Shown here piece after piece: positions 3,041 through 50,413 of a stretch of 64,000 bases of DNA; within the stretch, counting starts at the first letter, position 1; the number at the start of each line of letters is the position of its first letter. The notes under the pieces were generated by a model that saw nothing but the letters and a program-made list of their open reading frames with translations, ran no database searches and was not told the DNA's origin. This DNA comes from Minisyncoccia bacterium (GTDB taxonomy: Bacteria; Patescibacteriota; Minisyncoccia; Phycocordibacterales; CALRBL01). The DNA is taken from contig JBBRNV010000004.1 in NCBI GenBank assembly GCA_038230075.1, positions 6,047-70,046 of the forward strand. The letters are read 5' to 3'. The position numbers and the translations under genes were made by a program.

Positions 3041-3049
3041 TGATATACT
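3041..3049 (+). promoter_or_regulatory. extended -10 element TGATATACT, 6 nt upstream of Hsp20 ATG (leaderless or near-leaderless transcript)
   Basis: TGnTATACT match; no SD between it and ATG at 3056. Confidence 0.4.
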
Positions 3050-3055
3050 ACAAGC

Positions 3056-3559
3056 ATGAAAGAAAAAAGATCATTTTTTGAAAGACTAACCGGATCAATC
3101 AGTGTCGACGACTTTGATGCTGAAGAACAAGACATTGAAACGGCTCATATTAAACCAACTGGTGCACAACATGAAAAGTTAGCATCATGGATGAGTGAAG
3201 ATCCTGCTGAAGGACAACTCTCTGTTGATGTATTTCAAACTCCTACCCATATTATTATCAAATCAATGATTGCAGGTGTTCGCCGCGAAGACGTTGATAT
3301 CGCAATTTCTCGAGACATGCTGACAATTAAAGGAAAACGAGAAGAAGAACGTGGTATTCAAGATGGTGACTATTTTCATAAAGAACTCTATTGGGGAACA
3401 TTTTCTCGAACCATTCTTCTTCCTCATGAAATTGAAATTGAAGGGGCTGAAGCTATTGAAAATATGGGAATGCTTACTATTCGACTTCCTAAAGTTGATA
3501 AAGAGAAAAAGGCTAAACTTAAAGTAATGAAGTCTCAAGGTGGTTTTGTTGCAAACTAG
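3056..3559 (+). CDS. Hsp20/alpha-crystallin family small heat-shock protein
   Basis: alpha-crystallin domain pattern (LSVDVFQT..., GVRREDVDIAISRDMLTIKGKREEE, ...GTFSRTILLP...). Confidence 0.85.
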   Translation: MKEKRSFFERLTGSISVDDFDAEEQDIETAHIKPTGAQHEKLASWMSEDPAEGQLSVDVFQTPTHIIIKSMIAGVRREDVDIAISRDMLTIKGKREEERGIQDGDYFHKELYWGTFSRTILLPHEIEIEGAEAIENMGMLTIRLPKVDKEKKAKLKVMKSQGGFVAN

Positions 3560-12009: not shown

Positions 12010-12037
12010 TTGACACCGTAAATTCATATGATATGGT
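12010..12037 (+). promoter_or_regulatory. strong candidate promoter TTGACA-N16-TGaTATGGT (extended -10)
   Basis: Perfect -35 plus TGn-extended -10; identical 10-mer ATGATATGGT recurs at 25222-25231. Confidence 0.5.
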
Positions 12038-12043
12038 ATCGAA

Positions 12044-12182
12044 AGCTTTTGGTATTGCTATTGCAAGTGCGACATATGATGACGAGCTTCGGGGCGGATA
12101 CTCCCTCGGATAGTCATTATTGCCACGTGTCAGCATGTCGGTTGAAGGGGCCCGGGATCGCGAGATTCTGGGCCCTTTTCTT
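12044..12182 (+). ncRNA. candidate small RNA (~140 nt) of unknown class between two minus-strand genes
   Basis: Promoter at 12010-12037; GC-richer structured segment; intrinsic terminator 12147-12182 with T-tract on plus strand only; no credible ORF. Confidence 0.3.
12147..12182 (+). terminator. rho-independent terminator (GGGGCCC ... GGGCCC + TTTTCTT)
   Basis: Self-complementary GGGCCC arms with 16-nt loop followed by T-run on plus strand. Confidence 0.6.
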
Positions 12183-12189
12183 ATATGTT

Positions 12190-12909
12190 CTACTTAATAA
12201 AACTCTTTCTGTGCTCAGAGGTGATTCCGTACTTCTTTATAGCTTTAACGTGAAATAATGTTCCATACCCAACATGTGTATCAAAACCATACTTAGGATA
12301 TTTTTTTGCCAATGTATACATTAATGTATCTCGAGTAACTTTCGCTGCAATTGATGCGAGTGCAATCGCAGGCTCTTGTTCGTCCCCTTTTATAATTGAA
12401 ACTTGATTACTAAATTCAGATGGTGCTTTCAGTCTTCCGTCGAGTAACACCGTTGTTGTGTTTATATTCGCCTTAAGTTTTCTTAAGCATTTCTTCATCG
12501 CCTCTTGTATAGAATGAGTTAAGCCACGCGAATCAACTATCGCTGGTTTTGTATGACCAATAGCAAACTTTAAAATTCCTTCTTTCTGCCATCGCTTAAT
12601 TCGGGAAAACCAAATTTCTCGATCTTCGCGTCGTAGCTGTTTCGAGTCTTTTAATCCGACTAATAGTCGACATGTTGCGAGGTCAAACAATTGTGTAGTT
12701 GAAATAAGCACAGCACCAACTGAAACTGGCCCAGCAAATGATCCCCTTCCCACCTCATCAATTCCAATAATAAATTCAGAATCATAATGTGAATCAAAAT
12801 TCATTTCATGTTTTGACTGCTTTTTTCGAGTAGTTTGTAGCTTTCGTGTTGCCGCATATTTTCGAAGGGGCCGCAACTTCTTTTTTCTTTCCATGCGCAT
12901 ATAATACAC
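12190..12909 (-). CDS. rnhB: ribonuclease HII (true start probably the internal Met at 12804)
   Basis: FIIGIDEVGRGSFAGPVSVGAVLI matches RNase HII active-site region; basic N-terminal 35-aa extension overlaps dnaE -10 box and is probably not translated. Confidence 0.85.
   Translation of the reverse strand: MYYMRMERKKKLRPLRKYAATRKLQTTRKKQSKHEMNFDSHYDSEFIIGIDEVGRGSFAGPVSVGAVLISTTQLFDLATCRLLVGLKDSKQLRREDREIWFSRIKRWQKEGILKFAIGHTKPAIVDSRGLTHSIQEAMKKCLRKLKANINTTTVLLDGRLKAPSEFSNQVSIIKGDEQEPAIALASIAAKVTRDTLMYTLAKKYPKYGFDTHVGYGTLFHVKAIKKYGITSEHRKSFIK
12900..12905 (+). promoter_or_regulatory. TATAAT -10 box 7 nt upstream of dnaE ATG (leaderless)
   Basis: consensus hexamer read directly. Confidence 0.35.
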
Positions 12910-21447: not shown

Positions 21448-21462
21448 TGCTATACTTTTTAC

Positions 21463-22161
21463 ATGAAAAGTAACACACCATTTCTTACCATTATCGCAAT
21501 TTTAGGAATCGCACTCATTGGTAGTGCGTGGTATATCAGTCGAACACACACCCCAGCCCCAGATACCACATTAGCTGACCAAAATAATTCAGGAATACAA
21601 TTTCGACCAATCACAGCTGATGATCACATTTTAGGAGACCCTAAATCAAAAGTAACACTTCTTGAATATTCTGATACAGAATGTCCTTATTGTATTCAAT
21701 TCCACAAAGTGATTGTTCAACTGATGGCTGAGTATGGAAACAACGGTAATCTTGCATGGGTCTATCGACACTCACCTATTCTTCAACGACATCCAAAAGC
21801 ACAAAGAGAAGCAGAGGCCACCGAATGTGCCACAGAACTTGGAGGAAAAGAAATGTTCTGGAAATACTTAAATACAATCATGACAAATACACCAGGAAAT
21901 AATGAATTAGATCCTGCAGTACTGCCACAATATGCTTCACAACTCGGACTCGATGTTACCGCCTTCAATACATGTCTCGACAGTCGAAAATATAAAACAA
22001 AAGTAGAAACAGATTCGCAAGATGCCGTGCGTGCTGGTTTACAAGGAACACCATACAGCTTACTGATTAGTAACAATGGAAAAGATATTGTTCCTCTTAA
22101 TGGTTCAGTTCCCTACGAACAATTGAAGCAATATCTAGATGGTGTCCTTAAGGCTAAGTAG
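21463..22161 (+). CDS. DsbA-like thiol:disulfide oxidoreductase with N-terminal membrane anchor
   Basis: N-terminal TM helix, CPYC active site, thioredoxin fold length. Confidence 0.75.
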   Translation: MKSNTPFLTIIAILGIALIGSAWYISRTHTPAPDTTLADQNNSGIQFRPITADDHILGDPKSKVTLLEYSDTECPYCIQFHKVIVQLMAEYGNNGNLAWVYRHSPILQRHPKAQREAEATECATELGGKEMFWKYLNTIMTNTPGNNELDPAVLPQYASQLGLDVTAFNTCLDSRKYKTKVETDSQDAVRAGLQGTPYSLLISNNGKDIVPLNGSVPYEQLKQYLDGVLKAK

Positions 22162-25100
22162 CCACTTGCACGAATTACAGTCTTTTTTCTGACACATCTT
22201 TGTTAAAAACTCTCCTGAGATAATTTCTTCAGAAACTCGTATAATGTCTTGCTCAAGAAGATCTCTTTCATTGTCGGTTATTTCAAACCGTTCAGTCTTA
22301 TATCTTTTCTGATCATCTGGTTCAATAAATGAGAGCTCACCGAACTTCATTTTAAATTCTTGTTGTTTATCAAGTAGTAGATCATAGAAAACAAGCTGCC
22401 GTTTGTATGCACCGTCGCTATTTTTTGTATTTCCTTCAATTTCGTTTCGAGTCATTGGCTGTTTTGTTTTGTAATCTACCACCACAACATTCTTACTTCC
22501 CACTTCGAGTGGCATTACCAAATCGAGCTTTCCTTTAAGTGGAATATTCAAATTTTGTTTAGGTAGATGAACTGAAACTCCTGATACATTCATTTCAGAA
22601 ATATAGAGTTGCAAAAGTCCATTCTTTTTTGCTTCTTTCCATGCTGATTCATTCGTTTTGAAGAAACCACTGAGTGATTGTTCTCCTCTTACTCGAAGTT
22701 CAGCAATGTCATGTTGAGTCAGGGGTAATTTTTCGAGAGCATCGTAATACATTCGAATCAAGACATCTTCATGTATTTCTTCGTTTTGCTTAATCGAGCG
22801 AAAGAAAAGATCGAGAGTGTTGTGAACTGCTGTTCCGTACATCTGATTTCTATTTTGAAGTGATGGAATTCGGATAAGGTTTTGCCAAAAATAATCAGAG
22901 GGGCATCGTAAGTAATTATTTAATGCAGTAACTGAGAGTCCTTGTTTAATAAACAACTCTCGAATATAGTCGAGATCGAGAATTTTCTTATTTGAAGCTT
23001 TTGGAAGCTTGTTTTCAGGATATTCCACAAGACTGGTTTCAAATGCTTCTGTATTAATTTGACTAAGATGATCTGATGATATTTCATGCAAAAACTGGGA
23101 TGGAAGTAGTAGTCGTCCTTCATTGTTACTTCCTCCATACAAAATCCACACTTCTTTTCGTGCACGAGTAAGTGCAACATAAAGTAGTCGTCTCTCATCA
23201 TCAATCTTTTCGAATTCTGTTTCAATATCTTCAAACAGTGGAATATGAAAAAATGAACGACTCGCTTTATTACTCCATCGTCCTTCAATAACACCTGAAA
23301 TAAAAACATATTCAAATTCCATTCCTTTTGATCTATGTGCAGTTAACAAAGATACTTTTCCTTCTGTCATAGTTCCATTCTTTTTTATCCGAATATTGTG
23401 CCGCTGCATAAAATCAAGATGTGTTACGAAGTCAGAAAGTCGCGCTTCATGATTTCTTGATTGAAACTTTTTTATTTGATCAAAAAATAATGAAATCAAT
23501 TCAATGTCTTCGAGGCCTGATTTTGATTGTGTAATTCTTTTTGGAAGATCGGTTACACTAAGAAATTCTCCAAACCACTCAGTAACATTCATTTCTCGAG
23601 AAAGCGAAGTTAATTTTTCAATCTGTTTATATACATCTGGTAATGTACTTTGTATATGCTCTATAAGTGGGGCTCGTCTTGTTTCAAGTTGAGTGAGCAT
23701 TTTTAAAATATCCATTGTAGGCATGTCGTTTACGCGAGACAAAAGTGCTTTTGAAAGGATTGTATTATCGTACGGATTCACGAGCGCCCTTAGGTACGAA
23801 ATAATATCTTGAATTAAAATGTTCTTAAGAACGTTATCTTCTGATTGAATGGCGTATGGAATATCGAGAGATTCCAAAGCTGCAGCTATATATAATGCTT
23901 CATTGTTTTCTCTGTAAATAACAGCAATCTCTTCAGGCTTTGTTCCACCGTCGAGCTTTTCTCTAATAGTTTTTGCAAGAAAAAATCTTTCGTGTGACTC
24001 ACTAGAAAAACCTGCAACTTTTACTTGCACATCATTACTAGCATGAACAGACTCGGCTTGTAGCTTCGCCCGCAAATGAGCATGAATTGCATCACTCTTT
24101 TCTGGTAGAATATTTCTGTCAATTAAAGATGTTGCAGCGTCTAAAATAGTTTGGGTTGAACGATAGTTATCAGTAAGTGCAATAATTTTTGCATTCGGAT
24201 AAAGTCTCGTAAAATATAAAAAGTTTTCAAGCGACGCGCCTTGAAATCTATAAATTGCCTGTTTTTCATCACCCACAATAAAAAGATTCGGTTCATCATG
24301 AAAGTTGGCCAGAAGTTCTAAGATAGTATTTTGCGCTTTGTTAGCATCTTGGTGCTCATCTGCAAGAATATATTGATATGTCTCTTGAAGGTCAAGAAGT
24401 AGATTGTCATGTTCTTGAAGTGCTTTAATGAAATCAAGAAGCATATCGTCGAAGTCATATAACTTTCGAAAAGACAATCCTTCTTCATAGGCTTTATATG
24501 CAGTGAGCAACTCGCGTTGTTTTTGTATTTCTTTTTCTAGATCCCTATATTCTTTTTTTACTTTTCCTTTATATGCTCCTTTTTCATGAATTAAGTCGGG
24601 TGCAGTGCGAAGCCTCTCTTCTTGTTTTTGAATAATTTTTTCAAGTTCAACTGGAATGACTTTTTCTCTTTTCATTTCAGAAATAGAACTAAGCACCGTT
24701 CGAACATGTTTTAACTGATCTCCAAAAGGACGAAGAAGTGTGTACTGACCATGAACAATCACTTCTTCCATTATCGAAATTTGATCTTCTTCAGTCGCAG
24801 GTTCTGAACTAACAATACGAGGAAAGTATTCTCCATGTCTTTTAATGTTGTCAGTAGCGAAGCTGTGGAAAGTATAGACATTTACCTTATAGGCAGTAGG
24901 GCCGATAATATCGGTTAACTTTTTTCTCATTGAAATTACCCCCGATTCAGTGAATGTAAGAGCCAAGATGTTCTCAGGGGCTGTATCAGTCTTTTTTAAG
25001 ATATTTGCAATACGAAGAGCAAGAATGGTGGTTTTGCCAGTTCCAGGCCCCGCAATGACCATTACAGGCCCTTCAACAGTATCTACTGCCGCTTTCTGCA

Positions 25101-25173
25101 TAGTGTTGAGTTTGTTATAAAGGGTGAGAAAAGTTGATTCTTCTACTGCTCCATTGAGAGGCTTTTGAGACAT
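22135..25173 (-). CDS. UvrD/PcrA-family SF1 helicase with C-terminal RecB/Cas4-like Fe-S nuclease domain (AddA-like single-chain helicase-nuclease)
   Basis: Walker A AGPGTGKTT, UvrD motifs; C-terminal GKLDLVMPL...VVVVDYKTK nuclease motifs plus Cys cluster (C...CxxxxCxxC). Confidence 0.8.
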   Translation of the reverse strand: MSQKPLNGAVEESTFLTLYNKLNTMQKAAVDTVEGPVMVIAGPGTGKTTILALRIANILKKTDTAPENILALTFTESGVISMRKKLTDIIGPTAYKVNVYTFHSFATDNIKRHGEYFPRIVSSEPATEEDQISIMEEVIVHGQYTLLRPFGDQLKHVRTVLSSISEMKREKVIPVELEKIIQKQEERLRTAPDLIHEKGAYKGKVKKEYRDLEKEIQKQRELLTAYKAYEEGLSFRKLYDFDDMLLDFIKALQEHDNLLLDLQETYQYILADEHQDANKAQNTILELLANFHDEPNLFIVGDEKQAIYRFQGASLENFLYFTRLYPNAKIIALTDNYRSTQTILDAATSLIDRNILPEKSDAIHAHLRAKLQAESVHASNDVQVKVAGFSSESHERFFLAKTIREKLDGGTKPEEIAVIYRENNEALYIAAALESLDIPYAIQSEDNVLKNILIQDIISYLRALVNPYDNTILSKALLSRVNDMPTMDILKMLTQLETRRAPLIEHIQSTLPDVYKQIEKLTSLSREMNVTEWFGEFLSVTDLPKRITQSKSGLEDIELISLFFDQIKKFQSRNHEARLSDFVTHLDFMQRHNIRIKKNGTMTEGKVSLLTAHRSKGMEFEYVFISGVIEGRWSNKASRSFFHIPLFEDIETEFEKIDDERRLLYVALTRARKEVWILYGGSNNEGRLLLPSQFLHEISSDHLSQINTEAFETSLVEYPENKLPKASNKKILDLDYIRELFIKQGLSVTALNNYLRCPSDYFWQNLIRIPSLQNRNQMYGTAVHNTLDLFFRSIKQNEEIHEDVLIRMYYDALEKLPLTQHDIAELRVRGEQSLSGFFKTNESAWKEAKKNGLLQLYISEMNVSGVSVHLPKQNLNIPLKGKLDLVMPLEVGSKNVVVVDYKTKQPMTRNEIEGNTKNSDGAYKRQLVFYDLLLDKQQEFKMKFGELSFIEPDDQKRYKTERFEITDNERDLLEQDIIRVSEEIISGEFLTKMCQKKDCNSCKWLLSLKDTI

Positions 25174-25202
25174 GTATCAAGTATACATGGGGGTTCTATT
25201 TG

Positions 25203-25231
25203 TCGACAAACCTAATACTACATGATATGGT
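25203..25231 (+). promoter_or_regulatory. candidate promoter TCGACA-N17-TGaTATGGT, same architecture and 10-mer as 12010-12037
   Basis: read directly; shared ATGATATGGT. Confidence 0.5.
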
Positions 25232-25267
25232 TTTTGAAACTCCAACCCCCTCACCCAGCAATCCCTT

Positions 25268-25900
25268 ATGTTCATTGCAACACTGAGTACAGCTCAAACA
25301 GTTGTGTTACTCGTTCTTACTGCCGCACCAACTTGTGTGATCTGCACTTGCCTCAAATCGTGGCTAGAGATACGAAAAACAACACCTCGATATCGCTTGA
25401 ACGTGTTTTGGAAAAACGATATAAACTTTCAACAAGGAAAATCGCCCTTTGATTCACTTCTTCACATTGCTGGACGTGTGATCAACAAAGTCAGCGATAA
25501 CTCAACTCGAGACCTTGAATTTATTCTCGCAAAGACTTCTCGACTAGAGCTCTCTGTCGAGGAATGTTTTGGACAAGCGATGTCCTCACTACTTCTCGTG
25601 CGAGTGGCTGAATTCCAAATCAAGGCAGAAGCACATGTTCGAAGTACTGCCGAAAAAAGATTTGACTTTCACGATCTGGCAGTTTCATCTGGAAGAATCG
25701 TACTACTTCTTGAACACTACATTCCACTGTGTCCAGAGTATGTTACATATCTACTATCTCTTGCGCCCGAAGGTGTGAGCGATGCAGACAAGTCGTTTGC
25801 TTCAACAATGGAGCTTTCACTTTTCAGAATCTGCGGCGGTAAACTAATACGTCCAGGTACTAGAAGTGAAGTCTTCCAACACGAATGCAGGAATCGTTAA
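25268..25900 (+). CDS. hypothetical protein (210 aa) with N-terminal hydrophobic/Cys-containing segment; no recognisable domain; could alternatively be non-coding
   Basis: 633-nt open frame with host-like codon usage (cga, gaa, aaa) in slightly GC-elevated region; no SD. Confidence 0.4.
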   Translation: MFIATLSTAQTVVLLVLTAAPTCVICTCLKSWLEIRKTTPRYRLNVFWKNDINFQQGKSPFDSLLHIAGRVINKVSDNSTRDLEFILAKTSRLELSVEECFGQAMSSLLLVRVAEFQIKAEAHVRSTAEKRFDFHDLAVSSGRIVLLLEHYIPLCPEYVTYLLSLAPEGVSDADKSFASTMELSLFRICGGKLIRPGTRSEVFQHECRNR

Positions 25901-25914
25901 TCAACCAAAAGAAA

Positions 25915-25953
25915 GCGCGCCCGGCAGAATCTGCCCTGGCGCGCGTCCTTTTT
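25915..25953. terminator. strong bidirectional rho-independent terminator (serves rpoD on minus and the 25268-25900 unit on plus)
   Basis: GCGCGCC-CGGCAGAATCTGCC-CTGGCGCGC long GC stem flanked by A/T runs on both sides. Confidence 0.75.
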
Positions 25954-25970
25954 ATATAACAAAGATTCGA

Positions 25971-27266
25971 TTAATAGTTTCTTAGTCGATTGATTTTATC
26001 GTGCTGTCGAATCTTTTCATGAGCCTTTGCTTCAATTTGTCGAATTCGTTCTCGGGTTACATTAAACTGTTTTCCCACTTCTTCAAGTGTGTGCTGAATA
26101 CCGTCGAGAAGCCCATGTCGAAGTTCGAGAATTCGTCTTTCTTTTTCAGACAGATCTCCAAGAATTTCTTTCACTTGATCTGACAAAATTCGTCGAGATG
26201 ATTCTTGGTCGGGTGATAGAATCTTTTCATCAGAAATAAAATCTCCGTATGTCGAGTTTTTATCATCTCCGTCGTCTCCAACTGGTGTGTCGAGTGAAAG
26301 TGTACTCTGATCAATTTTTTCAATGTGATACACCTTATCAACATCGATTCCCATTTCAACAGCAATTTCATCAGGAAGTGGATCTCGTCCTAAGTCTTGT
26401 GACAGTCGTCGAACAACTTGTTTATATTTAGCAATTGTTTCTACCATGTGCACAGGCACTCGAATGGTTCGTGATTGATCAGCAAGCGCTCGAGTGATTG
26501 ATTGTCGAATCCACCATGTGGCGTATGTTGAAAACTTATATCCTTTAGTCCAATCAAACTTATCAACAGCTTTGAAGAGTCCAAGATTTCCTTCTTGAAT
26601 CAAATCGAGAAGGGTAAGGTCGGGGCTTCGTCCTACATACTTTTTTGCAATGGATACCACCAATCGAAGGTTAGCACGAGCCAAAAGGTTTTTAGCCTCG
26701 TTGTCACCTGCTTCAATTCGCTTAGCTAAATCTTTTTCTTCTTGAGCATGAATCAATGGATACTGTCCGATTTCTTTCAAATACATTTGAATAGAGTCGT
26801 AGCTTGAATCATGACGATTGTAGACATACTTTTTCAAAATTTCGTCGTCTGACTCTTTCATTTCAAGTAAACCTCCTCCTTCAAGTACATCAATACCAGC
26901 CGATGTAAACTTTTCGTAAAGGTGATCGAGAAACATCACATCTTCTTCAATAGTTGGAAACTCTTTCAAGATATCATCGTAGGTAACAAATCCTCTTTCT
27001 TTTCCCCGAGCTAAAAGTTTAGCCGCTCGAACCTCTGCATCTTTTTGTTTTTTTGATAGGACAACAATAACGTCCTTTTTATTTTTTGAAGCTGGTACTG
27101 ATTTTGTCTTTTTTTCTTTATGTAAAGTTTTTTTAGACGCTTTGACCGTAGTCTTAGCTGCGTTTTTAGCAGGAGTTTTTGCCGCTTTGTGGGCGGGTTT
27201 TGTTACACCTTTCGATGTTTTACTATTATTTTTTACTGGCTTAGATTTTTTTGGTGTTTTTTTCAT
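25971..27266 (-). CDS. rpoD: RNA polymerase sigma factor RpoD (sigma-70) with Lys-rich N-terminal region
   Basis: regions 2-4 ([31 protein letters not shown], helix-turn-helix region 4). Confidence 0.95.
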
Positions 27267-27294: not shown

Positions 27295-29112
27295 TTACTC
27301 TCCATTCGACTTTGGTAGAGGAGGCTTATCGACGTATCCCTTCATTTCTTTATGATACATCGAGCGAAGCTCTGCTAACTGACTCGTAATGTGACTGCAG
27401 AGCTTTAACTTAATTTCGACAGTTTCTAAATCACCTTGCCGTTCTGCTTTTTGGAGTTCCGCCATCACTATTTCGAATTGCTCCTCAAGATCACCTTCGG
27501 CAACTGCGAACAAAAGTTCCTTAATATCGATATCTTCGATAATGCCAGTAGTGTAATACTGGTCGATTTCAAAGAGAATGATATCACGTTCTTCACTATG
27601 TTTCTCTTCGAAACTCTCGAATCGACTCTGAAACAATGTCTTTAATCTATCTTTTATCTTAGCTGCCTTTTCTTTAAATAATTCTTCAACTTTCGCTTCA
27701 AGGTTGTAAATGATGCCGAACAGTCGTCGAAGTGCTTGTTCTGACTTCACTTTCATAGATGCAACTGATGTTCTGACGGGCGATGTTGATGAATGTGACA
27801 TGTTGCCAGTTTGCATTTGTTCAATCTCAATTGCTTTAACCTGCTTCAACTCTTCCCACAACGCATCTTCTCTCACTCCAGTTTTAAGAGCGATCTCTCC
27901 TATAAAACGTGATTGATCTAAACTACTTGGAATTATTTTTACATAAGGAAGAATCTTTTCACGAAGAGCTCGAGTTACTTCCCGAGGATTATCTCGAATC
28001 TTTTCATCTTGAAGAAGTACATCAAGAACAAAAGTAATAACATGTTTTGAATTTCGAAGAGCGTTTTTGAAAAGTTCAACATCTTCTAAAATAAGATCTG
28101 CTGGATCTTTTCCTTGAGGAAGAAGTGTGATTTTAACTTCCATGCCAGCACCGAGTGCGAGTGTCCATGCGCGAATTGAAGCATTTACCCCAGCCTTATC
28201 TCCATCGTATACAAGAAGTAAGTTTGGCGACAAACGTTTTAATGTAGACAGTTGGAATGGAGTAAGTGCGGTTCCTGATGTTGCAATGGCATGATTAAAC
28301 CCTGCCTGATGACACATAATGAGATCCATTTGTCCTTCAACTAATATTGCATATCCTTTTTCTCGAATTGCTTGTTTTGCAATATGAAATCCATAAAGAA
28401 CTTCAGACTTATTAAACAATTCGGTATCAGGACTATTCAAATATTTTGCATCTGAAGTGTTTGAGTTGGTAACTCGACCTGTGAAAGCAATGACTCGTTC
28501 TGAAGGATCAAGTATGGGAAACATAATTCGATCTCGAAAGCGATCATACATTCCCTTATCCCCTTGTTTAATAAGACCTGCTTTTTCTAACTCTTCTTGT
28601 CTCCATCCTTTTTTAATCAACTCATCACGAAGTGAGTTCCACGCATCGAGTGCTAATCCCAATTTCCACGAAGCAACTGTTTCTTTGGTAAGACCACGAT
28701 CTTCTAAATAGGCACGAGCTTTTTCTGCATTAACCGAATCAGACTGCAAATTCTTTTGATAGAACTGTGTTGCTTCCTGTATTGCATCAAATAATCGCAC
28801 TCGAGCATCTCTCTCGCCTCGTGGTTCTTGTGTTAACGAAACACCTGCACGGTCTGCCAACATTTTAAGCGCACCTTGAAAATCAACTTTGTCGAATTCT
28901 TGTACAAAGGTAAAGATGTCTCCTTTAGCGCCACAACCAAAACAGTAGTAGCTTCCTCGTTGTGGAGAGACAAAGAATGAAGGAGATTTTTCTCGATGAA
29001 AGGGGCATTTTCCTTTCATACTTTGGCCAGCCGGAACAAGCGTGATGTAGCTTGAGACTACTTCCACAATTCCCAATCTATCTTTAATTTTTTCGACATT
29101 TGATGATGACAC
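27295..29112 (-). CDS. dnaG: DNA primase
   Basis: CHC2 zinc finger (CPFHREKSPSF...CFGCG), TOPRIM domain. Confidence 0.9.
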   Translation of the reverse strand: MSSSNVEKIKDRLGIVEVVSSYITLVPAGQSMKGKCPFHREKSPSFFVSPQRGSYYCFGCGAKGDIFTFVQEFDKVDFQGALKMLADRAGVSLTQEPRGERDARVRLFDAIQEATQFYQKNLQSDSVNAEKARAYLEDRGLTKETVASWKLGLALDAWNSLRDELIKKGWRQEELEKAGLIKQGDKGMYDRFRDRIMFPILDPSERVIAFTGRVTNSNTSDAKYLNSPDTELFNKSEVLYGFHIAKQAIREKGYAILVEGQMDLIMCHQAGFNHAIATSGTALTPFQLSTLKRLSPNLLLVYDGDKAGVNASIRAWTLALGAGMEVKITLLPQGKDPADLILEDVELFKNALRNSKHVITFVLDVLLQDEKIRDNPREVTRALREKILPYVKIIPSSLDQSRFIGEIALKTGVREDALWEELKQVKAIEIEQMQTGNMSHSSTSPVRTSVASMKVKSEQALRRLFGIIYNLEAKVEELFKEKAAKIKDRLKTLFQSRFESFEEKHSEERDIILFEIDQYYTTGIIEDIDIKELLFAVAEGDLEEQFEIVMAELQKAERQGDLETVEIKLKLCSHITSQLAELRSMYHKEMKGYVDKPPLPKSNGE

Positions 29113-39355: not shown

Positions 39356-39377
39356 AAGTTCATGATAATATGTACGT

Positions 39378-40430
39378 ATGTCTATTTTTAATCGAATGTT
39401 TGGTGGAAACGGAAGCGCTTCTGGCGCTGATTTTAATCTCGATTGTCTTTCTATTGGAGACACAGTCGTTGATGCATTTATTCGTCTTCAAGTTGCTGAA
39501 GAGTTGGTAGACGTTGAACACCACCGCGACATGCTTTGCATGACATTCGCTGACAAAATACCTTATGAATTTGCTGAAGTAATTCCCGGTGTTGGAAATA
39601 GCGCTAATGCCGCAGTTGCTCTTGGAAGACTGGGTCTCTCATCTGGAATCTACACCAATGTTGGAGACGATATGTATGGACAAGATTGTATTAAGAATTT
39701 CAAAGATAATCACGTATCAACAGACTTCGTTGTGGTGAATAAGGGAATGAAGACAAACTACCATTACGTATTGTGGTTCAAAAATGAACGAACAATTTTA
39801 ATTAAACACTTCGAGTATCCGTATGTCTTTCCTAAACAAACTAATCCTCGATACATCTACTTAAGTTCTCTTGGGCCAACATCTCTCGACATGCATCGCC
39901 AAATCGCTGACTTCATGAAGTCACATCCAGAAACAAAACTAGTATTTCAACCTGGAACATTTCAAATTAAATTAGGAAAAGATCAGCTTAAAGATATTTA
40001 TGCATGTACAGAAATCTTTTTCTGTAACAAAGAAGAGGCTGGAAAAATATTAGGAACAGACGCAATTGCTGGAGCTGATAATATAAAAAAATTAATGAGT
40101 GACCTTCGTGGTCTTGGACCAAAAGTCGTTGTTGTAACCGATGGACCAGCTGGTGCATATGCATCTAATGGAACAGAGAATCTTTTTGCACCACCGTATC
40201 CTGATCCAAAAGAGCCTTACGAACGAACTGGTGCAGGAGATGCATTTGCTTCAACATTTACTGGAGCATTAATGAAAGGAAAGACATTGAAGGAAGCTTT
40301 ACAGTGGGGGTCTGTTAACTCTATGTCAGTTGTGCAAGATATTGGTGCACAACGAGGCCTTCTTCCACAAGATAAAATTGAGCAGTTTATTAAAACTGCA
40401 CCTGTAGGTTGGATCGTTACGGAAATTTAA
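39378..40430 (+). CDS. PfkB-family carbohydrate kinase (ribokinase-like)
   Basis: N-terminal GGxxxN(A)AxxxxRLG-type motif and C-terminal DTxGAGD-like ERTGAGDAF. Confidence 0.8.
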   Translation: MSIFNRMFGGNGSASGADFNLDCLSIGDTVVDAFIRLQVAEELVDVEHHRDMLCMTFADKIPYEFAEVIPGVGNSANAAVALGRLGLSSGIYTNVGDDMYGQDCIKNFKDNHVSTDFVVVNKGMKTNYHYVLWFKNERTILIKHFEYPYVFPKQTNPRYIYLSSLGPTSLDMHRQIADFMKSHPETKLVFQPGTFQIKLGKDQLKDIYACTEIFFCNKEEAGKILGTDAIAGADNIKKLMSDLRGLGPKVVVVTDGPAGAYASNGTENLFAPPYPDPKEPYERTGAGDAFASTFTGALMKGKTLKEALQWGSVNSMSVVQDIGAQRGLLPQDKIEQFIKTAPVGWIVTEI

Positions 40431-45687: not shown

Positions 45688-45730
45688 ACACAAAGCAAAG
45701 GGGCGCCGCAACGAATAGTCGGGCGCCCCT
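45688..45730 (-). terminator. rho-independent terminator on minus strand immediately upstream of trmD (ends the GC-rich island transcript)
   Basis: GGGGCGCC(G)-N11-(C)GGCGCCCC hairpin followed by TTTGCTTTGT on minus strand. Confidence 0.6.
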
Positions 45731-45753
45731 CAGGATTCGAAGTGGTATTTGAG

Positions 45754-46143
45754 TCAGGCATGAAAAGCCATATCGAAACTCAAACTCTTCGGTCGTATGA
45801 CCGGAATGCGACAGTCCTCCGGTGGTGGGTCAACCAGAAAAATCTCTCGGGCTGAATACAACAATGCCTCAGACAGAGCAATGCCAACCTCGTTGAGGAT
45901 GACATCGCTTGGAACTTCACGCCGCCGATCACGAGTAAACTCACAAGCGGTGGTAAAGGCCCGATTCGGCGAGAGTAATCCACTTGACTCCACCTCTTGG
46001 AAAAGGAGTAAGCGTACTTTGAGTACGCAATCAGCGCAACTCTCGACGTCGCGCCAACTGACCTCAATGACGTTCACCACACCGAGACAGAGGTTCTCAA
46101 TACCCACAAAGGTGAAACCACGATATTTAACATTTCGATTCAT
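45754..46143 (-). CDS. dubious ORF (129 aa) in 50% GC island; faint RimM C-terminal (PRC-barrel)-like pattern; possibly non-coding
   Basis: G/C-ending codon usage unlike host genes; stop codon 2 codons upstream of ATG; overlapping plus-strand ORF. Confidence 0.2.
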   Translation of the reverse strand: MNRNVKYRGFTFVGIENLCLGVVNVIEVSWRDVESCADCVLKVRLLLFQEVESSGLLSPNRAFTTACEFTRDRRREVPSDVILNEVGIALSEALLYSAREIFLVDPPPEDCRIPVIRPKSLSFDMAFHA

Positions 46144-46238
46144 TTTTTAGGAGCTGGGTTGATGATTGGCTACGAACTGAAGTTCTGGAGACCATTTGGT
46201 TCCAATCGAACTATGCCACAGTTATAGTTTAAAGTAAA

Positions 46239-46278
46239 TATAAAAACGAAAGGGTCCGACATTCACATGTCGGACTCC
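46239..46278 (-). terminator. rho-independent terminator on minus strand after ORF 46300-46650
   Basis: GTCCGACA-tgtgaa-TGTCGGAC hairpin followed by CCTTTCGTTTTTAT. Confidence 0.65.
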
Positions 46279-46299
46279 CTTGTCGATACAGATAGCAAC

Positions 46300-46650
46300 T
46301 CAGAACAATCCAAGTCGAGCAGGTGCTTGCACCTCTTGAATGTTGCGCACGAAAACCAAGCTCGCAGTTTCCATCGTATCCCGCAAGATCTCGATCAAAA
46401 CCTTTGTGATGACATCCGTTGCGGCGCGATCTAAAAAAGCATGTGCTTCATCGTCAATCCCAGCAGTTGCGCTCGTGAAGAGATCAGCGACGTGTCGAAC
46501 TTTTTTTAGTCCCTCAAAAAACAAAAGCCGAGAGCAGAAACGCACAAGTTGTTTGTTGAGACGACAACTTGCATGAACCATGCTCACTTTTCCAAGCTGT
46601 AACGCTCGAATTTCTTCGATATTGAATATGATGTTTGTGCAATGTTTCAT
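46300..46650 (-). CDS. hypothetical 116-aa protein in GC-elevated island (uncertain)
   Basis: ORF with mixed codon usage, bracketed by terminators at 46731-46775 and 46239-46278. Confidence 0.3.
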   Translation of the reverse strand: MKHCTNIIFNIEEIRALQLGKVSMVHASCRLNKQLVRFCSRLLFFEGLKKVRHVADLFTSATAGIDDEAHAFLDRAATDVITKVLIEILRDTMETASLVFVRNIQEVQAPARLGLF

Positions 46651-46730
46651 TGATAAAAATCTAAGATTTGGCTGTAATCACCAGAATGGTAATTTAAGCT
46701 CTGCCAAGAACATAGCATATTAGTAGATAA

Positions 46731-47647: not shown

Positions 47648-47741
47648 GGTTAGACGATAATAGCAGACGTTTGGTGATAGGTCAATTGGGCTCCAATCAA
47701 AGGAACAGGGCTAAGAAAATCGAGTTTTTTCGTTTTTCTGC

Positions 47742-47747
47742 TATGAT
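47742..47747 (+). promoter_or_regulatory. TATGAT -10 box 8 nt upstream of rnr ATG (leaderless)
   Basis: read directly. Confidence 0.3.
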
Positions 47748-47755
47748 GACCAGAT

Positions 47756-49711
47756 ATGCGAACAGGAATAATGACAATCACCGCCAAAGGTGTCGGTTAT
47801 CTAAAGAATCCACTATTTGAAGAAGACTGGGAAATTGCTCCTGAGCTTTTAAATTGTGCCCTTCATGGAGACGAAGTTGAAGCTGATGAATATCCCCGAT
47901 CAGCTGGAAATACTTTTGCAAATAGTATGTCTTCAAAAACTCAAGCCAAAGTATTAGGAGTAACGAAACGAGCAAAAACTCATTTTGTAGGAACAATCGA
48001 AGAAGACAACGGAAAAGCATTTCTCGTTCCTGACGATAAACGAATGTATGTTGATTTGTTAATTCAAAAAGAAGAAACCATGGGAGCAACTCACGGCACT
48101 AAAGTGTTTGTTGAAATGAAACCATGGACAGATTCTAAACAGAATCCTCAAGGAGTCGTAAAGAAAATTATTGGAGAAAAAGGAAACAATGATGCCGAAA
48201 TGGAATCAATCGTACTTGAACGAGGATTCGATACCGACTTCCCTCCCGAAGTTCTTCACGAAGCACATCTCACAGAACTAAACGAACGAGCTATTCTTCC
48301 TCATGAAGTAGCAAAGCGTCGAGATATGCGTGGAACATTTACTGCAACAATTGACCCATTTGACGCAAAAGACTTTGATGATGCACTTTCAATCAAAAAA
48401 ATTAACGATGACTTGTATGAAATCGGTATTCACATTGCCGACGTATCTCACTATGTTCGTGAAGGAACATCACTCGACAAAGAAGCTCGTAAGCGTGCTT
48501 TTTCTGTATATCTTGTTGATCGAACAATTCCCATGCTTCCACATGTTCTTTCGAACGATGTTTGTAGTTTGAATCCACACGAAGACAAGTTAACTTTTTC
48601 TGCGGTGTTTGAGATGACAGTCAAAGGAGAAATTAAAAATAAGTGGTTTGGAAGAACAGTCATTCATTCTGATAAACGATTTAGTTATGAAGAGGCTCAA
48701 GATGTTCTTAACAATAAAGGAAATGGAGAAGGTGCCGAATTTTTTGAAAAAATGAACTGGTTTAACACCATCGCTTATGCTCTTCGAGACGAAAAAACAA
48801 AAAATGGAGCAATTGATTTTGAAACAACTGAAATTAAATTTAAACTCGATGAAACCGGAAAGCCTATCGAAGTTATAAAGAAAGAAAGATTAGACACTCA
48901 CCGATTAGTTGAAGAATTTATGCTTCTTGCAAACCGAGAGGTTGCTGAGTTTATTTTCAGAGGAGTAGAAAACAATAATAAAGGAAAAGGTTCACATCTC
49001 GGCGTATATCGAATTCACGATGTGCCTGATCATGAAAAACTGGCAGAACTTTCACTCTTTTTGAAAGCACTCGGATATGATCTTGATACTAAAAAAGACA
49101 TCACTCCTAAAGATATTCAAAAGCTATTAAAGCAAGTTGAAGGAGATCCAAACGAAGCACTTATCAAAACAGCAACAATTCGATCAATGGCAAAAGCGGT
49201 CTACTCAACACGAAACATTGGTCACTTTGGTTTAGCCTTCACATATTACACTCACTTCACTTCCCCTATTCGACGATATCCCGATCTTGCAGTTCACCGA
49301 ATTCTTCAAGAGGTGCTTCATGGAAAAATAATGACCGATCGAGAAGCGGCCCTTTACACTCGAATTTGTTTAGAATCATCTGAACAAGAAGTGAAAGCAG
49401 CAGAAGCAGAACGAGCATCAATTAAATACAAACAAGTAGAATACATGATTCCACGACTTGGACAGGTATTTTCTGGAAAGATTTCTGGGGTAACTGAGTG
49501 GGGTCTCTATGTTCAAGAAGAAACAACAATGGCAGACGGCATGATTAAACTTCGAGATCTGAAAGATGACTTCTATTCATTTGATCAAAAGTCATACTCA
49601 ATCATTGGTCAACAGAAAAAGAAAAAATATACACTCGGTGATCCAATCAAATTTAAAATTATGGCGGCAGACCTCGAACGAAAAACTCTTGATTGTGTCT
49701 TGGCTGAATAA
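47756..49711 (+). CDS. rnr: ribonuclease R / RNase II-family 3'-5' exoribonuclease
   Basis: RNB domain (ATIDPFDAKDFDDALS, YSVYLVDRTIPMLP), C-terminal S1 domain. Confidence 0.9.
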   Translation: MRTGIMTITAKGVGYLKNPLFEEDWEIAPELLNCALHGDEVEADEYPRSAGNTFANSMSSKTQAKVLGVTKRAKTHFVGTIEEDNGKAFLVPDDKRMYVDLLIQKEETMGATHGTKVFVEMKPWTDSKQNPQGVVKKIIGEKGNNDAEMESIVLERGFDTDFPPEVLHEAHLTELNERAILPHEVAKRRDMRGTFTATIDPFDAKDFDDALSIKKINDDLYEIGIHIADVSHYVREGTSLDKEARKRAFSVYLVDRTIPMLPHVLSNDVCSLNPHEDKLTFSAVFEMTVKGEIKNKWFGRTVIHSDKRFSYEEAQDVLNNKGNGEGAEFFEKMNWFNTIAYALRDEKTKNGAIDFETTEIKFKLDETGKPIEVIKKERLDTHRLVEEFMLLANREVAEFIFRGVENNNKGKGSHLGVYRIHDVPDHEKLAELSLFLKALGYDLDTKKDITPKDIQKLLKQVEGDPNEALIKTATIRSMAKAVYSTRNIGHFGLAFTYYTHFTSPIRRYPDLAVHRILQEVLHGKIMTDREAALYTRICLESSEQEVKAAEAERASIKYKQVEYMIPRLGQVFSGKISGVTEWGLYVQEETTMADGMIKLRDLKDDFYSFDQKSYSIIGQQKKKKYTLGDPIKFKIMAADLERKTLDCVLAE

Positions 49712-49724
49712 ATCTCAGTAGTAT

Positions 49725-49760
49725 TAAATAAAATGAAACGCCCCGATTTTATTCGGGGCG
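49725..49760 (-). terminator. rho-independent terminator after GC-rich ORF 49780-50304 (minus strand)
   Basis: CGCCCCG-aataaaa-CGGGGCG followed by TTTCATTTTATTT on minus strand. Confidence 0.6.
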
Positions 49761-49779
49761 CTGGTGGAGAATACCACCA

Positions 49780-50304
49780 TCATTCTGCGACTGGGTCGCC
49801 ATCGAGATCGATCACTTGCTTACTATACTTTTCAGCAAGTGTGATGACCTGAAGAACCAGTTCTGAGTTCCTCGCGTCAGGCATGATCAGCACACCTGAA
49901 GTTTTTCTAATGATCACGTCGTGAACCTTTTCACGAGCTCCCGTGAGCCATGTCGGCAAACGTGAATGACCACGACGCGTCTGATTGTTTGCGAACTCCA
50001 TCGAACCTAGCGCGTTGAAGAATGGTCGCATGTCGAGCACGTACATGGTTTGGCGAAGATGTTCCAATACATTTGCGTACATAACCTCATCTGCCAAAGG
50101 AAGGATGCAATCTTGGTGACACATTTGAACCTCACCGTAGAGGGCAAAGAGTCGTTTTTCGGGAGCCGCGCGCAGCATTGCGCTTACCAGACTCGTCGCG
50201 ACCGGCATAAGATGCTGAGGTTCGCGGGCGGCAGCCAACAGTGTTTGAAATTGATCCGACCAAAACTGATTGATGTGTGTGGTAAGAACTGGAACTAAAC
50301 TCAT
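49780..50304 (-). CDS. hypothetical 174-aa protein encoded in a ~50% GC island (candidate horizontally acquired ORFan)
   Basis: ORF with G/C-rich codon usage, own promoter-like TTGACT-N16-TAGACT upstream and own terminator. Confidence 0.5.
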   Translation of the reverse strand: MSLVPVLTTHINQFWSDQFQTLLAAAREPQHLMPVATSLVSAMLRAAPEKRLFALYGEVQMCHQDCILPLADEVMYANVLEHLRQTMYVLDMRPFFNALGSMEFANNQTRRGHSRLPTWLTGAREKVHDVIIRKTSGVLIMPDARNSELVLQVITLAEKYSKQVIDLDGDPVAE

Positions 50305-50413
50305 TTGAGGTGGTGATATCTCCGGTGTGGGGTTAACTGAACGTAGAGCTATGGAACTTCTAACAACTAGTCTATCTATATTTACATCTTAGTCAAAAAA
50401 GAAATAACTGATG

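Follow-up and report, generated by a model that had tools for sequence, protein, structure and literature searches.

A probable orphan-gene cassette with its own predicted promoter and terminator in the variable rpoD-helicase gap of a Paceibacteria genome

The window analysed here, a 64,000-nt stretch of contig JBBRNV010000004.1, comes from a Paceibacteria (Patescibacteria/CPR) genome whose RpoD is at best 85% identical to proteins of MAGs labelled Nomurabacteria, Taylorbacteria or Paceibacterota. On its minus strand dnaG, rpoD and a helicase-nuclease gene follow one another, and the last two are separated by a gap of 797 bp. A unit spanning 25203-25953 sits in this gap on the plus strand, opposite to the dnaG-rpoD-helicase string. 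Its GC content is 43%, compared with 35-40% in the flanks and 38.4% window-wide. An earlier note, made from the sequence alone, had placed this locus between the helicase-nuclease gene and dnaG-rpoD, in agreement with the gene positions. The locus raises the question of what the unit encodes and whether the promoter word that it shares with a second locus points to common regulation. We consider it to be, with a probability of roughly 0.6, a self-contained accessory cassette that consists of a housekeeping extended -10 promoter, a species-specific ORF (ORF210) and an intrinsic terminator and that lies in a variable slot (Table 1). This would be an ordinary result, since CPR genomes are rich in orphan genes and both the promoter and the terminator are of textbook types. 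The useful outcomes are mostly negative, and the genomic context, an apparently SD-less genome and a slot that recurs across the order, is mildly useful.

Table 1. Features of the rpoD-helicase gap and of the other loci discussed, in window positions
Feature	Positions	Strand	Remarks
dnaG	27295-29112	-	
rpoD	25971-27266	-	
Helicase-nuclease gene	22135-25173	-	UvrD + PD-(D/E)XK
Predicted helicase promoter, leaderless type	25171-25185	-	-10 TATACT (25185-25180), 6 nt, ATG (25173-25171)
Palindrome TTGTCGACAA	25200-25209	.	overlapping -35 hexamers of two predicted divergent promoters
10-mer ATGATATGGT, predicted extended -10	25222-25231	+	TG 25223-25224; TATGGT 25226-25231
Predicted 5' leader, ~30 nt	25238-25267	+	C/A-rich, almost no G, no SD
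ORF210, 210-aa orphan	25268-25900	+	ATG start, GC 43.3%
Predicted bidirectional intrinsic terminator	25906-25953	.	hairpin 25915-25944, T-runs on both strands
13-nt direct repeat	25194-25206 and 26031-26043		12/13 match
Locus 1	12010-12182	+	promoter-like site, then RNA candidate
Locus 1 promoter-like site	12010-12037	+	TTGACA (12010-12015), 16 nt, ATGATATGGT (12028-12037)
Locus 1 RNA candidate	12044-12182	+	~140 nt, hairpin-rich
MIW-starting ORFs	12028-12258 and 25222-25452	+	76 codons (231 nt) each
Further leaderless-type examples	3041-3058, 21448-21465, 39363-39380, 47739-47758		
ORF174	49780-50304	-	unit 49745-50390
GC-elevated region	45690-46720	-	~1 kb, 44-53% GC
ORF116	46300-46650		
ORF129	45754-46143		

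The order of rpoD and the helicase gene is kept in 63 relatives, and the gap between them, measured from the rpoD stop to the helicase start (loci L002-L081), ranges from -35 to 4,349 bp. The ORFs found in these gaps are mostly unrelated to one another, forming only six two-member clusters, none of which contains ORF210. Pfam searches over 66 gap ORFs identified PemK/MazF toxins, Mrr, RhuM, an IS200 transposase, glyoxalases, MsrA, MFS, amidase and other families. In Paceibacteria the junction between rpoD and the helicase gene recurs as a hypervariable cargo slot, and because gap size varies and the cargo is unrelated in the 63 relatives, ORF210 is best read as an orphan accessory cassette within this slot. 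The arrangement resembles that of ORFan genes in variable slots or integration hotspots, in that the core flanks are syntenic whereas the slot content is unrelated, toxin, restriction and transposase genes are among the cargo, and ORF210 is atypical in GC content and codon usage. It differs from them in that the cargo is a single gene without any homolog and in that a tRNA and clear flanking repeats are absent here. No integrase, transposase or mobility gene was found at the cassette, and no convincing terminal repeats or target-site duplication around it. The sole flanking repeat is the direct repeat TTC(T/A)ATTTGTCGA, which brackets the cassette together with the final 60 nt of rpoD. By our estimate, chance alone would give about 0.6 pairs of this kind in the stretch concerned, therefore this repeat is probably not a target-site duplication.

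The earlier note had described a 633-nt open frame behind the promoter, and this frame is present as ORF210. Its length is not readily explained by chance, as 210 codons were not attained in any of 20,000 runs of a first-order Markov model of the 797-bp gap, the longest ORF in six frames having a median of 73 and a maximum of 209 codons. When codon usage was scored as log-odds trained on the genes of the window, ORF210 reached 0.07 in frame and the other five frames -0.30 or lower, which makes the ORF210 frame the best by 0.38. Stop-free random sequences of the same composition scored -0.34 +/- 0.08 and none of 2000 attained the ORF210 value, which lies 4.9 SD above them; among the shadow frames of real genes, only 0.6% score above 0.07. 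The test of 3-nt periodicity proposed in the earlier note gave 4.17 for ORF210 compared to 1.49 for stop-free random sequence (p = 0.0035), the 5th percentile of real genes being 5.5. GC content declines over the three codon positions (GC1>GC2>GC3) from 0.54 to 0.41 and 0.35, as in the genome (0.53/0.36/0.26). In view of its 3-nt periodicity, a codon bias specific to its frame and a length beyond chance, ORF210 most likely encodes a protein.

These signals are nevertheless low for a gene. The codon score of ORF210 falls below all 63 same-length chunks of real genes (minimum 0.144), and its amino acid composition, with 3.3% Cys vs 0.6%, high Leu/Ser/Arg and low Gly/Lys/Asp, is shifted in the direction of random ORFs; neither codon usage nor composition is typical, with a GC content of 43% vs 38%. 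Such values would suit an ORF that is not, or no longer, functional, either a decaying horizontally acquired remnant or a young proto-gene whose product is unselected, in which case the promoter and terminator would mainly insulate rpoD and give the helicase gene a promoter of its own. The total orphan status of ORF210 and the very low confidence of its structure prediction (both described below) point in the same direction, as does the presence in the window of at least three further GC-elevated stand-alone orphan units, ORF174, ORF116 and ORF129. However, an intact 210-codon frame that was unreached in the simulations, a frame-specific codon signal well above stop-free random sequence and the retention of a complete promoter and terminator argue against it, and we regard a non-functional ORF as a doubtful explanation that still deserves some weight beside the preferred one of a coding accessory cassette. 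A bolder extension of the cassette reading would group ORF210, ORF174, ORF116 and ORF129 as orphan cassettes of one kind, raised in GC content, of very recent or foreign origin and equipped with individual promoters and terminators, which colonise core-gene gaps and rewire the transcription of their neighbours. We think it improbable that this holds. If it did, the ORF210 unit would cut the helicase gene from the rpoD operon and add a competing, palindrome-sharing leaderless promoter; a still weaker variant would let the ~715-nt transcript act as an RNA.

The other three units were inspected in their own right. ORF174 is a stand-alone orphan between lepA and an RNase R-like gene, with a GC content of 50% and a codon score of 0.03. 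TTGACT-16-TAGACT forms a promoter-like site ahead of it, the leader is C/A-rich as in ORF210, and a terminator follows. No ORF174 homolog was found in 5.8 billion protein clusters. With such a GC content and length, ORF174 could more readily than ORF210 have arisen by chance. ORF116 and ORF129 lie in a GC-elevated region between a KH-domain gene and a trmD-like gene, both identified by eye; in many bacteria rimM sits at the position between the KH-domain gene and trmD. Each of the two ORFs has a terminator-like hairpin downstream, and ORF116 also has a TGCTATGTT promoter-like site upstream. This region yielded no Pfam or Rfam matches, and in some of its 150-nt windows the fold z is as low as -3.8. 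Kinship between ORF210 and the other units was considered and rejected, since ORF210 and ORF174 matched with E = 0.16 and all four, when compared, were unrelated.

We then turned to the identity of the ORF210 product. Searches of Pfam, NCBIfam, PHROG and PADLOC gave no recognisable domain, consistent with what had been noted from the translation. A word-indexed search of 5.8 billion clusters and a full HMMER search over 1.84 billion representatives each retrieved only ORF210 itself, no significant homolog was obtained from PDB sequences, metagenome/viral contigs or phage genomes, and tblastn of 134 related loci gave none. The sole other copy is a Logan contig, in which both the protein and the 797-bp gap are identical with zero variants. 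The relatives share no similarity to the gap in DNA or protein, the closest helicase relatives being at most 66% identical. AlphaFold2 without an alignment predicted ORF210 with a pLDDT of 35. A frameshifted known gene was considered unlikely, the other frames of the gap (ORFs of 76, 69 and 53 aa) giving no Pfam match. As judged by these searches, ORF210 is a species-specific orphan gene. The hydrophobic, Cys-containing N-terminus that the earlier note had pointed out is evident in residues 1-30, with Cys at 23, 26 and 28. It consists of one hydrophobic helix with no basic n-region, followed by K30, R36, K37, R41 and R43. Such a charge distribution, read with the positive-inside rule, points to a membrane anchor of N-out, C-in topology, and the product would be a 23.7-kDa protein held by this single N-terminal helix with its C-terminal part in the cytoplasm.

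The same locus had also been thought to specify a large RNA, and a long non-coding or structured RNA of ~700 nt in which the ORF is incidental could draw on the raised GC content within an AT-rich genome, on the apparent small RNA behind the same promoter word at locus 1 and on the fold of the whole transcript (z -1.7, 0/20 shuffles as stable), which is largely owing to the terminator. However, Rfam searches over the unit gave 0 matches at E<=10, and the mean local z without the terminator is -0.38, within the range of three ordinary coding genes (-0.81 to +0.20). The ORF length, codon bias and periodicity would be unexpected for an RNA gene, and covariation cannot be shown for a sequence without homologs. 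We consider an RNA gene very unlikely and retain the protein-coding reading of the unit. Locus 1 itself lies between the L32 gene and rnhB and consists of a promoter-like site followed by an RNA candidate. The candidate folds into three hairpins and a strong terminator (fold z -3.3), and comparison with Rfam gave no family, the best match being the terminator hairpin alone with E = 0.03. Locus 1 is possibly an unannotated small RNA, as far as its predicted fold suggests.

The lack of an SD sequence before ORF210 had been listed among the peculiarities of the locus. None is indeed present upstream of ORF210, but this is not special, as not one of the 42 genes of the window is preceded by a convincing SD and only three show so much as a loose match of four bases to it. 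The lack of an SD is therefore uninformative on coding versus RNA, and in this lineage it is unusable as an argument against coding. In 17 of the 42 genes the start codon is preceded by a TANNNT -10 hexamer at a distance of 5-9 nt, whereas random positions, or all ATGs taken together, show this arrangement in only 8-9% of cases. From these upstream sequences the genome appears to use leaderless and SD-independent initiation and to depend for the most part on extended -10 promoters and SD-less, often leaderless, mRNAs. A literature search retrieved no paper documenting leaderless or SD-less organisation in CPR. Leaderless mRNAs have been described in Mycobacterium and Deinococcus (PMC3898074, PMC3160421). 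The helicase gene and the 17 genes of the window resemble these in that the -10 lies 5-9 nt before the start without an SD, whereas the -10 of ORF210 ends 36 nt before its AUG.

The predicted promoter of ORF210 was first recognized through a 10-mer, ATGATATGGT, reported to recur at two loci. The window contains exactly two copies, both on the plus strand, and each is preceded by a -35 hexamer at proper spacing as had been stated, TTGACA with a 16-nt spacer at locus 1 and TCGACA (5/6 matches; 25203-25208) with a 17-nt spacer at ORF210. The TATGGT hexamer of the latter keeps T1, A2 and T6 of the -10 element and has a TG one base 5', giving TGATATGGT at 25223-25231, so the extended -10 promoter proposed earlier is present as a sigma-70-type promoter-like site. 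Extended -10 (TGn) sigma-70 promoters were described in E. coli and are common in Gram-positive bacteria. The ORF210 site is like them in having a TG one base 5' of TAnnnT and a -35-like hexamer 16-17 nt upstream, and in being intergenic and ahead of a transcription unit; it differs in that TATGGT matches the hexamer at 4/6 positions and in being a promoter predicted from sequence. The extended -10 promoters of this genome usually abut the start codon, as expected for leaderless genes, and ORF210 instead has its short leader.

The recurrence of the 10-mer had been judged unlikely by chance, with about 0.1 expected. This figure is reproduced by shuffling (mean 0.10), but it is valid only for a word chosen in advance, and 7,614 different 10-mers recur in the window. 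Intergenic TGNTANNNT extended -10 sites number 29 in the window, with a density of 1.69/kb/strand vs 0.90 in coding DNA. Eight of the 29 have a TGATAT core (TGATATACT four times, TGATATGGT twice, TGATATAAT and TGATATGTT once each), and no other extended -10 core is as common in the window. Identical 10-mers are also shared by other promoter-like sites, namely ATGATATACT and TTGATATACT with two copies each. Related loci, 133 in number and 1.37 Mb in total, contain TGATATGGT 15 times, which is 2.9% of TGATATNNT vs 4.5% expected and thus no enrichment. Most of these copies appear to be intragenic, for example at recurrent conserved coding positions, so that the motif seems to occur in relatives without promoter context, an outcome which the earlier note had named as refuting its proposal; TATGGT is also the -10-like hexamer ahead of the helicase gene in one relative (L028). 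Because TGATAT is the commonest core, other promoter sites share 10-mers and the relatives show no enrichment, the recurrence is not special, identical promoter words of this length being the rule in the window. The only departures of the two ATGATATGGT sites from the commonest TGATAT variants are at hexamer positions 4-5, where the -10 element of sigma-70 promoters is least constrained. On this comparison of sites, the shared 10-mer is best taken to reflect the preferred -10 wording of the genome (TGATAT..T) and not common regulation.

It is highly improbable that ATGATATGGT marks a small regulon in which one specific sigma factor or regulator governs both the locus-1 RNA and ORF210, as the earlier note had proposed, because, although the exact 10-mer is limited in the window to two promoter-like sites and both units have a long untranslated start unlike the leaderless genes, the motif fits a generic extended -10 that deviates only at positions 4-5, the -35 sequences differ, the spacers differ by 1 nt, identity ends at 10 nt, other promoter pairs have 10-mers in common as well, the relatives show neither enrichment nor promoter context, and the complementarity between the locus-1 RNA and the ORF210 leader is unremarkable. 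Pairing of these two RNAs had been considered separately and was rejected, the duplex of -27 kcal/mol being matched by 35% of shuffles. The shared 10-mer is thus unfit for defining a regulon, and we keep to a housekeeping promoter for ORF210. Each copy of the 10-mer also contains an ATG that opens an ORF starting with MIW, and these two ORFs are equal in length. We take the equal lengths as a coincidence, since the remaining sequence is unrelated and no leaderless promoter is suitably placed. Leaderless translation from this ATG (25222 or 12028) was rejected, the only -10-like hexamers upstream ending 2-3 nt before it.

At the other end of the unit, the strong bidirectional terminator shared with rpoD was borne out. 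The hairpin, GCGCGCC-C-GGCAG-AAT-CTGCC-CT-GGCGCGC, is followed by GTCCTTTTT on the plus strand and TTTCTTTTG on the minus strand (tails UCCUUUUU and UUUCUUUUG), and closes rpoD, whose stop at 25971 is 27 bp away. Its free energy is -25.4 kcal/mol on the plus and -32.9 kcal/mol on the minus strand (z -4.35 and -4.78), and 0/200 shuffles fold as well. Like known bidirectional intrinsic terminators, it is a single GC-rich hairpin with an A-run on one side and a T-run on the other, which gives a hairpin with a U-tract on either strand, and it is located between two convergent stops, 25900 and 25971. It shows no unusual feature compared to these terminators, its function being predicted from sequence only.

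Taken in order, these elements suggest how the cassette might work. RNA polymerase with RpoD would start near 25238, a position predicted from the usual distance between -10 and +1, and would produce a transcript of ~715 nt. The leader, which is G-poor and unpaired in the MFE fold, would permit SD-independent initiation at the AUG at 25268. The hairpin would end the ORF210 transcript and, in the opposite direction, that of rpoD, and since the rpoD transcript would be stopped there, the helicase gene would need its own promoter. A candidate is at hand, as the helicase start reads TATACT-TGATAC-ATG, a leaderless-type arrangement divergent from ORF210, and this putative promoter would stand back-to-back with that of ORF210 on TTGTCGACAA. 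The latter is a perfect 10-bp palindrome holding two overlapping -35 hexamers, TCGACA on the plus strand for ORF210 and TTGTCG on the minus strand (25209-25204) for the helicase gene. The palindrome was also considered as a recurring operator and rejected, being unique in the window with near-matches at chance level. Because the two -35 hexamers overlap on the palindrome and the predicted starts are ~65 bp apart, polymerase probably cannot occupy both promoters simultaneously, and the two would compete. We infer the transcription, translation and membrane topology of ORF210 and this promoter competition from the features described above. Where the gap of a relative measures 7-60 bp, the helicase gene is probably co-transcribed with rpoD, and here the terminator of the cassette would separate them. 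The same leaderless-type arrangement is present ahead of the helicase gene in 30 of 60 relatives, often as TGnTATAAT.
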